Shown: one piece after another, positions 57,304-58,650 of the stretch
Numbering within the stretch: the first letter of the stretch is position 1
Layout of the letters: every line of letters starts with the position of its first letter
Notes under the pieces: model-generated
Database searches by the model: none
What the model was told of the DNA's origin: nothing
What the model saw: the letters and a program-made list of their open reading frames with translations, nothing else
Translations under genes and position numbers: made by a program
Sequence record: PP554575
Length of the DNA stretch: 64,000 bases
Source: Escherichia phage PMBT16
Direction: 5' to 3' (one strand)

Positions 57304-57525
57304 TTAGTAAAACTGAAGAATGTCTTTTAAAGCGAAGTCACGATATTCGCCCTTGTCTACATCGAAGGCACGCATCAACCACTGCTCTTCTTTATGATAC
57401 TCTGTAGAGCCAAACCATAAATTAGGCTCAGTAACGCAGCGATCTGCAACAACACCTTTCCAGTTACGGTATTTCATCCTGATCAGGACTGAGTCGCAAG
57501 GATTGAATACCTTTTTCATCACCAT
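57304..57525 (-). CDS. hypothetical protein (73 aa)
   Basis: ORF track. Confidence 0.5.
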   Translation of the reverse strand: MVMKKVFNPCDSVLIRMKYRNWKGVVADRCVTEPNLWFGSTEYHKEEQWLMRAFDVDKGEYRDFALKDILQFY

Positions 57526-58069
57526 AGAAATCTCTCTCCTCAGTTTTCTTTATAAACTCTTGCATGTAGAACTCAATAGCCTCATGCTTGGTGCACTCTG
57601 GATTAATGACAATATTGAGATCTGATTCTGCTCGTGCAATGATCGTAGCTTTAGAGCATCTCCTCAAGAACTTTGTCATATCATCTCTGTAGTTTTTGTG
57701 GAGCGGGAAGTCGCTGTAGTCTTTCTCCAGATAGTCAGCCATCCGGCGCAACGCCTCTGATAAACTGCAATCTGTATACTCGTTACAGTATTTCATCCAG
57801 TATTTAAGCACATACCCCTCAAAGGTATTAGTGCACTGAGACAAAACACCCCTGCAACGACCAGTCAGATGATCATGATCTAAACAAGGCTTACGAAGTG
57901 GCTCGCACAAGATCGGATCAAGACCATCCTGCTCCTCTGACAATTCTTTTCGAAAGTTGGCTATGTCCTTAGAATCTTTTAGCCACCCGCTATGAACGGG
58001 GGCTTTGACAGCTTTCTTTCTTATTTTACGCTTTGCGATAACCCCTCCAGATGCGCCCTGCCTATCCAA
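57464..58069 (-). CDS. endonuclease VII-like (HNH-fold) nuclease
   Basis: CLDHDHLTGRCRGVLSQCTN motif; start uncertain (track start TTG; overlaps RuvC-like gene by 49 nt). Confidence 0.55.
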   Translation of the reverse strand: MDRQGASGGVIAKRKIRKKAVKAPVHSGWLKDSKDIANFRKELSEEQDGLDPILCEPLRKPCLDHDHLTGRCRGVLSQCTNTFEGYVLKYWMKYCNEYTDCSLSEALRRMADYLEKDYSDFPLHKNYRDDMTKFLRRCSKATIIARAESDLNIVINPECTKHEAIEFYMQEFIKKTEERDFYGDEKGIQSLRLSPDQDEIP

Positions 58070-58650
58070 TAAGCATCTGCGAGATCGGCCTTACCTTGTA
58101 CCAAATTGATCCCATCTAGGAACCCTGGTTCAGATACTTCGCAGGCCTTAACCATCAACTTTTTATCCATCGTAACAGGTTTCTTCACAGTATGCTCTTT
58201 ACCTGTCTTTTTGTCAAGCTTTTTCTTCTCCTCAAAAGCAAGTTCTTCAGGAAGATGACTACGAGCAAACTTTTTGGCAGTTGTTGGTGTCACTGTGTGA
58301 ACCTTAAACAGGCCGTCATTTTCACAATCAGCTAAAGCATCCCAAAGCATAACTTCGAGACCGTAAAACAACCCAGCCAGTTCACGTGTGGCATCCCCGC
58401 GAGATCCGAAGGAAAGTCCTTCCATAACCACGGTGTCAACTCCGTGCGTGTGGATATAATATCTGACCTGTTTGCAGATCCAGTCAATACGCTCAGCAGC
58501 TGTTGCAAAAGAAACCGTCCCTGGTTTCTTCTCTTTTGCAGATGAGCTTTGAGTTCGTAACACAACCTTATGAACAGGCTTTCCATCGTCCCATACAACG
58601 CAAGCTGTGTGTGTCAACGACTGGTCTATGGATAATAGACGCTCTCTCAT
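58021..58650 (-). CDS. RuvC-like Holliday junction resolvase
   Basis: LSIDQSLTHTACVV, VVMEGLSFG, DLADAYWIG segments in RuvC-like order. Confidence 0.65.
   Translation of the reverse strand: MRERLLSIDQSLTHTACVVWDDGKPVHKVVLRTQSSSAKEKKPGTVSFATAAERIDWICKQVRYYIHTHGVDTVVMEGLSFGSRGDATRELAGLFYGLEVMLWDALADCENDGLFKVHTVTPTTAKKFARSHLPEELAFEEKKKLDKKTGKEHTVKKPVTMDKKLMVKACEVSEPGFLDGINLVQGKADLADAYWIGRAHLEGLSQSVK

Follow-up and report, generated by a model that had tools for sequence, protein, structure and literature searches.

A conserved AUC codon is the likely start of the endonuclease VII gene overlapping a RuvC-like resolvase gene in Escherichia phage PMBT16

Escherichia phage PMBT16 (sequence record PP554575) carries two adjacent nuclease genes on the minus strand, one for a RuvC-like Holliday junction resolvase and one for a homologue of phage T4 endonuclease VII, gp49 (EndoVII). 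We analysed this gene pair within a stretch of 64,000 nucleotides (nt) of the phage DNA, referred to here as the window. Based on comparison with related phages, we consider it likely that translation of EndoVII starts at a conserved near-cognate AUC codon at 58039-58037, giving a separate protein of 191 amino acids (aa). Both genes are already in databases, and the new part is that the EndoVII start most likely resolves to this conserved AUC, a testable result of modest novelty with value for annotation. The features on which the argument turns are the following.

58021-58650, minus strand: RuvC-like Holliday junction resolvase gene, 209 aa, ATG start
57464-58069, minus strand: EndoVII open reading frame (ORF) in its longest form, 201 aa, TTG start
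57464-58039, minus strand: endonuclease VII homologue in the proposed form, 191 aa plus stop, 19-nt overlap with the RuvC-like gene
58067-58069, minus strand: TTG, the start in most GenBank records, probably not functional
58044-58048, minus strand: Shine-Dalgarno (SD) motif GGAGG, 4 nt upstream of the ATC, within the RuvC codons L-E-G
58037-58039, minus strand: proposed initiation codon ATC (AUC), in alignment with residue 1 of the conserved basic tail
58021-58023, minus strand: TAA, the stop of the RuvC-like gene, 13 nt downstream of the AUC, its last base 19 nt from the A of the AUC
57827-57883, minus strand: catalytic core LDHDH...N, residues 53-57 and N71, then E74

The first-pass annotation of this DNA had described two overlapping ORFs in different frames and an EndoVII gene whose start could not be settled. 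Its coordinates are confirmed: the shared segment, 58021-58069, is 49 nt long, both ORFs lie on the minus strand, and the EndoVII frame is -1 relative to that of RuvC. It was also right that no in-frame ATG precedes the catalytic core, the first Met being residue 91 (YWMKY), which follows PCLDHDH...QCTN. The doubt about the start is shared by GenBank, where records of near-identical phages disagree, some placing it at the equivalent of TTG 58069 and others at an internal TTG.

For the start analysis, the DNA of about 30 loci was aligned; Salmonella phage GE_vB_MG (L096) was excluded as an 'UNVERIFIED' record with a broken frame. Throughout the clade, a Lys/Arg-rich tail with an I/M-x-R/K-rich start precedes the region that is homologous to distant relatives, which begins at residue 23-29 of the 201-aa ORF. 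Seven lineages have ATC as the first codon of this tail: Vequintavirus (the window, L009 and EduardKellenberger, L094), L010-13, Seunavirus (GAP31 and L014-17), Mydovirus (NDO71 and L018-20), Avunavirus 19-1-2 (L095), L021, and the Vibrio phages 496E54-1 and S4-7. The aligned codon is ATG in Kashira, L022, L023, LTH01 and Vibrio P1, GTG in the Certrevirus-type loci (CR3 and L024-28) and TTG in Aeromonas 4L372XY. Whatever the codon, it is preceded at 4-7 nt by an SD-like motif, which is of the GGAGG type in the majority of loci and weaker in three cases, L021, Vibrio 496E54-1 and S4-7. The last ~10 codons of the RuvC-like gene hold both the ribosome-binding site and the start of EndoVII.

The reading frame upstream of the ATC is interrupted in several of these phages. 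Vibrio 496E54-1 has an in-frame TAA at -3, directly before the ATC. In L009 and EduardKellenberger an in-frame stop at -21 is followed by no ATG, GTG or TTG until the ATC is reached, and in Avunavirus 19-1-2 the whole stretch from the upstream stop to the catalytic LDHDH is free of canonical starts. Among the sampled lineages, ATC is confined to those in which EndoVII and the 3' end of the RuvC-like gene overlap, by 8-34 nt, and the EndoVII start is canonical wherever another gene (phrog_12410 or HNH) separates the two. One RefSeq record, that of GAP31 (NC_019400, YP_006986988.1), begins the EndoVII coding sequence on the homologous ATC, at locus position 1417.

The possibility that non-canonical starts are a general trait of EndoVII genes was ruled out separately: in all of the 60 loci from other EndoVII clades the start is canonical and lies 35-44 codons before LDHDH.

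Synonymous and non-synonymous substitutions were counted pairwise in each reading frame. Over the 45 nt upstream of the ATC, the window and L009 differ by five synonymous changes to one non-synonymous in the RuvC frame and by one to six, including a stop, in the EndoVII frame; the corresponding counts for GAP31 and L017 are seven to one and two to eight. In the overlap after the ATC, the comparison of GAP31 with L014 gave three synonymous changes to none in the EndoVII frame and none to three in the RuvC frame. Past the RuvC stop, the window and L009 differ by four synonymous changes to none in the EndoVII frame. The frame under purifying selection changes at the ATC from that of RuvC to that of EndoVII. 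Thus the basic tail is translated, and translation in the EndoVII frame would begin at the ATC or immediately before it.

Current database entries reflect the missing canonical start. In the relatives of the window, the equivalent of ORF 57464-58069 is named 'EndoVII packaging and recombination endonuclease', and records of more distant relatives start it at an internal GTG or ATG, or, in the one RefSeq record, at ATC. Five start positions, including an ATG past the catalytic motif, occur across L094 (MZ501061), L095 (OK181860), L089 (PP430345), L005 (OP558001) and L008 (OX241444). Because several relatives offer no canonical start, gene callers return varying products for one protein, of 129-201 aa, as well as 90-aa C-terminal fragments. 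These fragment calls account for the match of phrog_29095, a 92-residue 'endonuclease' family, to residues 110-201 of the 201-aa ORF; the family appears to be spurious, built from truncated EndoVII calls.

The start given most often in GenBank, TTG 58069, would yield the 201-aa protein with its 49-nt overlap of the RuvC-like gene. TTG is a canonical start codon, the frame is open from this position in most Vequintavirus records as well as in the window, and the majority of these records annotate it. However, no SD motif precedes this TTG, and a TAG stands three codons after it in two close relatives, EduardKellenberger (94% aa identity, same genus) and the IMG/VR locus L009 (92%). Its equivalent is missing in all other genera. 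Furthermore, the 10 extra residues that it would add evolve like a by-product of the RuvC frame (compare homologues P0034, P0035 and P0037). We therefore regard initiation at TTG 58069 as unlikely.

A start further downstream, at TTG 57943 (KE-L-SEE) or TTG 57913, would give a protein of about 150-159 aa that lacks the basic tail. These are the first canonical start codons past the RuvC stop, and the equivalent of 57943 is used in the GenBank record of EduardKellenberger. The selection counts argue against this reading, as the 32 codons upstream of TTG 57943 are under purifying selection in the EndoVII frame; an example peptide from within residues 1-32 of the 191-aa form is AVKAPVHSGWLK. In addition, TTG 57943 lies inside helix 1 (residues 23-36), a helix common to T4 gp49, and a start there would remove most of it. 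Neither TTG is conserved in other genera or has an evident SD motif, and we consider this reading very unlikely.

The switch in selection would be equally well explained by a programmed -1 frameshift near the end of RuvC that produced a RuvC-EndoVII fusion, alone or beside free RuvC, and the frameshift was therefore judged on other evidence. In its favour, the window has EndoVII in the -1 frame relative to RuvC and, as in dnaX, an SD-like GGAGG upstream, and the RuvC-frame codons GAG GGG TTA and GTA AAA TAA permit single-tRNA slips (G GGG and A AAA). A perfect heptamer, G GGT TTA, even occurs in L009. However, a search of the 30 loci for X XXY YYZ and single-site motifs found the slippery motifs to be unconserved, with G GGG lacking in NDO71 and L017 and A AAA lacking in L010-13 and L021. 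The relation of the frames is also inconstant: it is -1 in most lineages but +1 in Vibrio 496E54-1, S4-7 and P1 and in Kashira. In the +1 Vibrio phages that keep the ATC, only 11 nt separate the in-frame stop from the RuvC stop, and no shift-prone codon lies between them. The EndoVII frame is under selection from the ATC onward, which lies upstream of the A AAA site, and sister lineages have ATG, GTG or TTG with an SD motif at the same codon; in some of them (Certrevirus, LTH01 and Aeromonas 4L372XY) the two genes are separated by another.

RNA structure at the junction lends the frameshift no further weight. The predicted fold of 57970-58110 was no better than those of shuffled sequences (z -0.65), leaving both frameshift stimulation and sequestration of the SD motif unsupported; a local hairpin lies about 20 nt downstream of the RuvC stop. 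With no conserved slippery site and no constant frame relation, a frameshift fusion is highly improbable. Of the two relationships that the first-pass annotation had raised, frameshifting is thus disfavoured, and translational coupling stands as plausible.

Initiation at the AUC would fit the following scheme. The AUC lies 13 nt ahead of the RuvC stop, which is the geometry expected for termination-reinitiation coupling, and EndoVII is probably coupled translationally to RuvC. The SD-AUC site would be used mainly by ribosomes coming straight from translation of RuvC or termination on it, which would reinitiate there, with the AUC decoded by the initiator tRNA; such coupling would be required for EndoVII to be initiated. 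A weak AUC would hold EndoVII, a promiscuous branch-cutting enzyme, to a small fraction of the RuvC level, and low EndoVII expression may itself be a selected property. By analogy with T4 gp49, RuvC might act on Holliday junctions and EndoVII in general debranching or the cleavage of mismatches ahead of packaging. T4 gene 49 is reportedly restricted in its expression at the translational level as well, a finding said to go back to Barth et al. in 1988. The strictest form of this scheme, in which the AUC is genuine, is maintained by evolution in at least seven lineages of large myophages of enterobacteria and Vibrio, works only by termination-reinitiation and sets an EndoVII:RuvC ratio of ~1:50-1:100, is one that we put forward tentatively, at somewhat less than an even chance.

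We also looked for a phage-encoded initiator tRNA that reads AUC. No tRNAs or Rfam hits were found within the 64-kb window, and the tRNA cluster of Escherichia phage JeffSchatz contains only Arg, Tyr, Lys, Thr, Ile(AUA) and Pro tRNAs. The tRNA-Met(ATG) of the rV5 paper corresponds to a tRNA-Ile reading ATA in JeffSchatz (L093 7398-8210; JeffSchatz 134397-135209), which presumably has a lysidine-modified CAU anticodon.

Several points weigh against initiation at the AUC. The case is computational only. An upstream in-frame TTG is present in the window's own genus, which leaves room for a minor, longer isoform. In the -1 lineages the C of the ATC doubles as the second base of a RuvC Ser codon, and part of the conservation of the ATC could stem from constraint on RuvC. 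The spacing between SD motif and start, 4 nt, is short by the usual standard. The number of putatively independent lineages is modest, about seven with ATC against about eight with canonical starts. Finally, frameshifting at the ATC or immediately ahead of it would mimic the switch in selection, and its rejection is a comparative argument only.

That the ORF encodes an EndoVII-like protein of the HNH fold, as the first-pass annotation proposed, is well supported. In the profile search that it had called for, the ORF passed Pfam PF02945 with 31.8 bits against a cut-off of 23.6 (E 1.4e-7) and matched phrog_423 at E 3.9e-37. By sequence (phmmer), residues 61-167 align with 37-147 of T4 EndoVII 1e7d at E 3e-4. 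An AlphaFold (AF2) model of the monomer reached a pLDDT of 87.8, and in a Foldseek search of the Protein Data Bank (PDB) T4 EndoVII was its only significant fold match (TM 0.70-0.74, 152-157 of 157 columns). Taken together, the profile, the catalytic residues and the whole-chain fold identify the ORF as a member of the gp49 family.

In 191-aa numbering, the protein consists of a basic N-tail (1-18), helix 1, a beta-beta-alpha-Me core, a C-terminal helical domain and a tail (176-191). The N-tail is Lys/Arg-rich and probably disordered, and helix 1 of the model (residues 23-36) aligns with helix 1 of T4 gp49. The extra ~16-22 C-terminal residues in this genus are non-conserved and predicted to be disordered (pLDDT < 50). 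LDHDH, N71 and E74 correspond to T4 D40, H41, H43, N62 and E65, which are invariant columns in the alignment that includes T4 gp49; in a 26-sequence alignment of the clade the catalytic residues are likewise invariant, except that E74 is nearly so. In the window protein, Cys is absent from all four columns of the T4 zinc ligands C23, C26, C58 and C61. The cysteines that it does have, C45, C52, C62 and C69 (57827-57915, minus strand), are each substituted in several close homologues. Loss of the zinc ligands is a feature of the clade and is seen also in ATG-initiated EndoVII genes of small phages.

The lack of a canonical start and of the four zinc-ligand cysteines could be taken to mean that the EndoVII ORF is a decaying or untranslated remnant. 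The frame is open over its full length in more than 400 phage records, however, the catalytic residues are invariant and purifying selection is strong. Furthermore, a full-length EndoVII fold is confidently predicted, and relatives that lack the zinc ligands and have normal ATG starts are widespread. We find it scarcely credible that the ORF is a remnant. As a separate observation, many EndoVII genes of small phages (GIDPIS..PITDPVLDHDH) are without the CxxC motif, which suggests a widespread zinc-free sub-family of gp49.

The identification of the upstream gene product as a RuvC-like resolvase also holds, by profile and by fold. The ORF matches phrog_159, 'RuvC-like Holliday junction resolvase', at E 3e-39. 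The window protein has no Pfam family at E <= 0.1, but PF02075 is carried by its distant homologues P0030 and P0032, and we conclude that the protein belongs to a divergent branch of the RuvC fold in phages (phrog_159). A sequence-only search of the PDB with the protein found nothing, and a profile of its homologues matched PDB RuvC at E 0.51 at best, so a comparison of folds was required. The AF2 model, built from 31 homologues, has a pLDDT of 92.9, and the Foldseek matches in the PDB ranked 1-13 are all RuvC (prob 1.00, TMt 0.69-0.78). They span Thermus, Deinococcus, Pseudomonas, E. coli and Lactococcus phage bIL67 (4ktw), with Thermus 4ld0 at E 7e-8 and TMt 0.74.

Residues D9, E77, D189 and D192 of the RuvC-like protein are invariant or at least 90% conserved among the 31 homologues. 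The acidic residues fall in IDQS, VMEG and DLADAY motifs, at the places expected of RuvC, and are candidate counterparts of the catalytic carboxylates D7, E66, D138 and D141 of E. coli RuvC. A lysine-rich insertion at 58170-58260 (minus strand), LPEELAFEEKKKLDKKTGKEHTVKKPVT, is found in RuvC-like proteins of the Vequintavirinae type. In relatives, GenBank names this ORF 'RNaseH' or 'hypothetical protein'.

The first-pass annotation had called the presence of both resolvase types uncommon. This is true of phages overall but not of this lineage, where the pair occurs throughout the sampled relatives. EndoVII directly follows the RuvC-like gene in Vequintavirus, Seunavirus (GAP31), Mydovirus (NDO71), Avunavirus, Serratia phage Kashira and the Vibrio phages 496E54-1, S4-7 and P1. 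A phrog_12410 gene of unknown function is inserted between the two in the Certrevirus-type loci and phage LTH01, and a small ORF together with an HNH endonuclease gene in Aeromonas phage 4L372XY (inserted-gene loci: L006 912-1454, L089 807-1460; L091 785-1417). By tblastn, the RuvC-like protein was found in 267 phage records and the EndoVII type in 433. As the pair is annotated in more than 100 genomes and is conserved across the Vequintavirinae and related Vibrio and Aeromonas phages, its presence here is, by these searches, ordinary for the lineage. A literature search found no paper on the EndoVII start codon or on the RuvC/EndoVII pairing in Vequintavirinae.

A region of 3.9 kb that includes the gene pair is 99% identical to JeffSchatz and to about 120 other Vequintavirus records, and by this identity the source phage is a Vequintavirus, an rV5-like myophage. 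In this region, 20 'Campylobacter phage' records (host Campylobacter jejuni; for example MG065653 and MG065677) show 95-99% identity to the E. coli rV5-like phages, which suggests that those submissions are mislabelled or contaminating phage.

The surroundings of the pair include the following features.

56281-60482, minus strand: probable operon frame, from consensus scans only
60453-60482, minus strand: promoter-like site, consensus scan
58647-58982, minus strand: acidic ORF of 111 aa, flanked by the FEN-like exonuclease and RuvC-like genes, phrog_7583, function unknown
57304-57525, minus strand: small gene downstream, 73 aa, weak WYL/SH3-like signal, phrog_3715 at E 2e-26
56281-56300, minus strand: terminator-like hairpin, consensus scan

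By PHROG assignments, the order in this probable operon is a 102-aa ORF, a FEN-like 5' exonuclease, the 111-aa ORF, the RuvC-like gene, EndoVII, the 73-aa ORF and a DnaQ-like exonuclease. Neighbouring genes from ~60419 to 56308 overlap by at least 4 nt and probably form a single transcription unit. The gene pair and its neighbours are best explained as a conserved recombination/replication nuclease module of rV5-like phage. The label 'putative exodeoxyribonuclease' that some records give the 111-aa ORF found no support in our profile searches. The 73-aa gene starts 62 nt within the 3' end of EndoVII (57464-57525, minus strand); the corresponding overlap is 8-20 nt in other genera, because EndoVII stops earlier there. 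Inside the RuvC-like gene, at 58189-58217 (minus strand) and ~150 nt upstream of the EndoVII start, lies a sigma-70-like promoter match (TTGACA-17-CATACT, 10/12, a consensus match only), which could give a second EndoVII transcript.

For annotation, a single rule, an SD motif and ATC inside the 3' end of the RuvC-like gene, would correct at least five different annotated EndoVII starts in a phage group that is often used in phage therapy and biocontrol. For the study of translation, the interchange of AUC with ATG, GTG and TTG in sister phages amounts to a natural experiment on start strength, coupling and the dosage of a toxic nuclease. If the AUC start is true, these phages hold a natural family of AUC-initiated genes in an E. 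coli system and a ready model for relaxed start-codon selection by reinitiating ribosomes. For phage biology, the constant pairing of a RuvC-type with a gp49-type enzyme suggests that the two divide between them the work on branched replication intermediates.

Compared with solved RuvC proteins (E. coli 1hjr, Thermus 4ld0/4ep4 and bIL67 4ktw; PF02075), the RuvC-like protein shares the RNase H-like fold and the four acidic positions at a sequence identity of 13-17%. It differs by the lysine-rich insertion, of ~30 residues (~131-160, a beta-hairpin in the model), that is missing from short homologues and from cellular RuvC. Similarly, EndoVII has the N-terminal helix, beta-beta-alpha-Me core and C-terminal helical domain of T4 gp49 (PDB 1en7, 1e7d, 2qnc and 2qnf; PF02945), with an identity of only ~23%. 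In contrast to T4 gp49, the window clade does not keep the four zinc-ligand cysteines, and the window protein adds an 18-residue Lys/Arg-rich N-tail and a genus-specific disordered C-tail of ~16 residues. The proposed start is AUC where T4 has AUG, and the window gene is paired with a RuvC-like gene, which T4 is without. The same ATC start has already been placed in the GAP31 record, whereas other records use at least four other positions.

The proposed EndoVII start would be a case of near-cognate initiation, a class already known. Reporters in E. coli put initiation from AUC at ~1-2% of that from AUG, with an N-terminal Met, and only two natural non-canonical starts are confirmed for E. coli, both AUU (bioRxiv 10.1101/063800). 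The EndoVII start resembles the AUU of infC and pcnB in being a third-position variant of AUG with a good SD motif, ahead of a product to be kept low, and AUU likewise reaches ~1-2% of AUG in reporters. In contrast to infC and pcnB, the codon in the window is AUC, the gene is a phage gene with no apparent autoregulatory logic of the IF3 kind, and the start lies inside the 3' end of the preceding gene. Thus reinitiation, rather than de novo binding of the 30S subunit, may dominate at this AUC.

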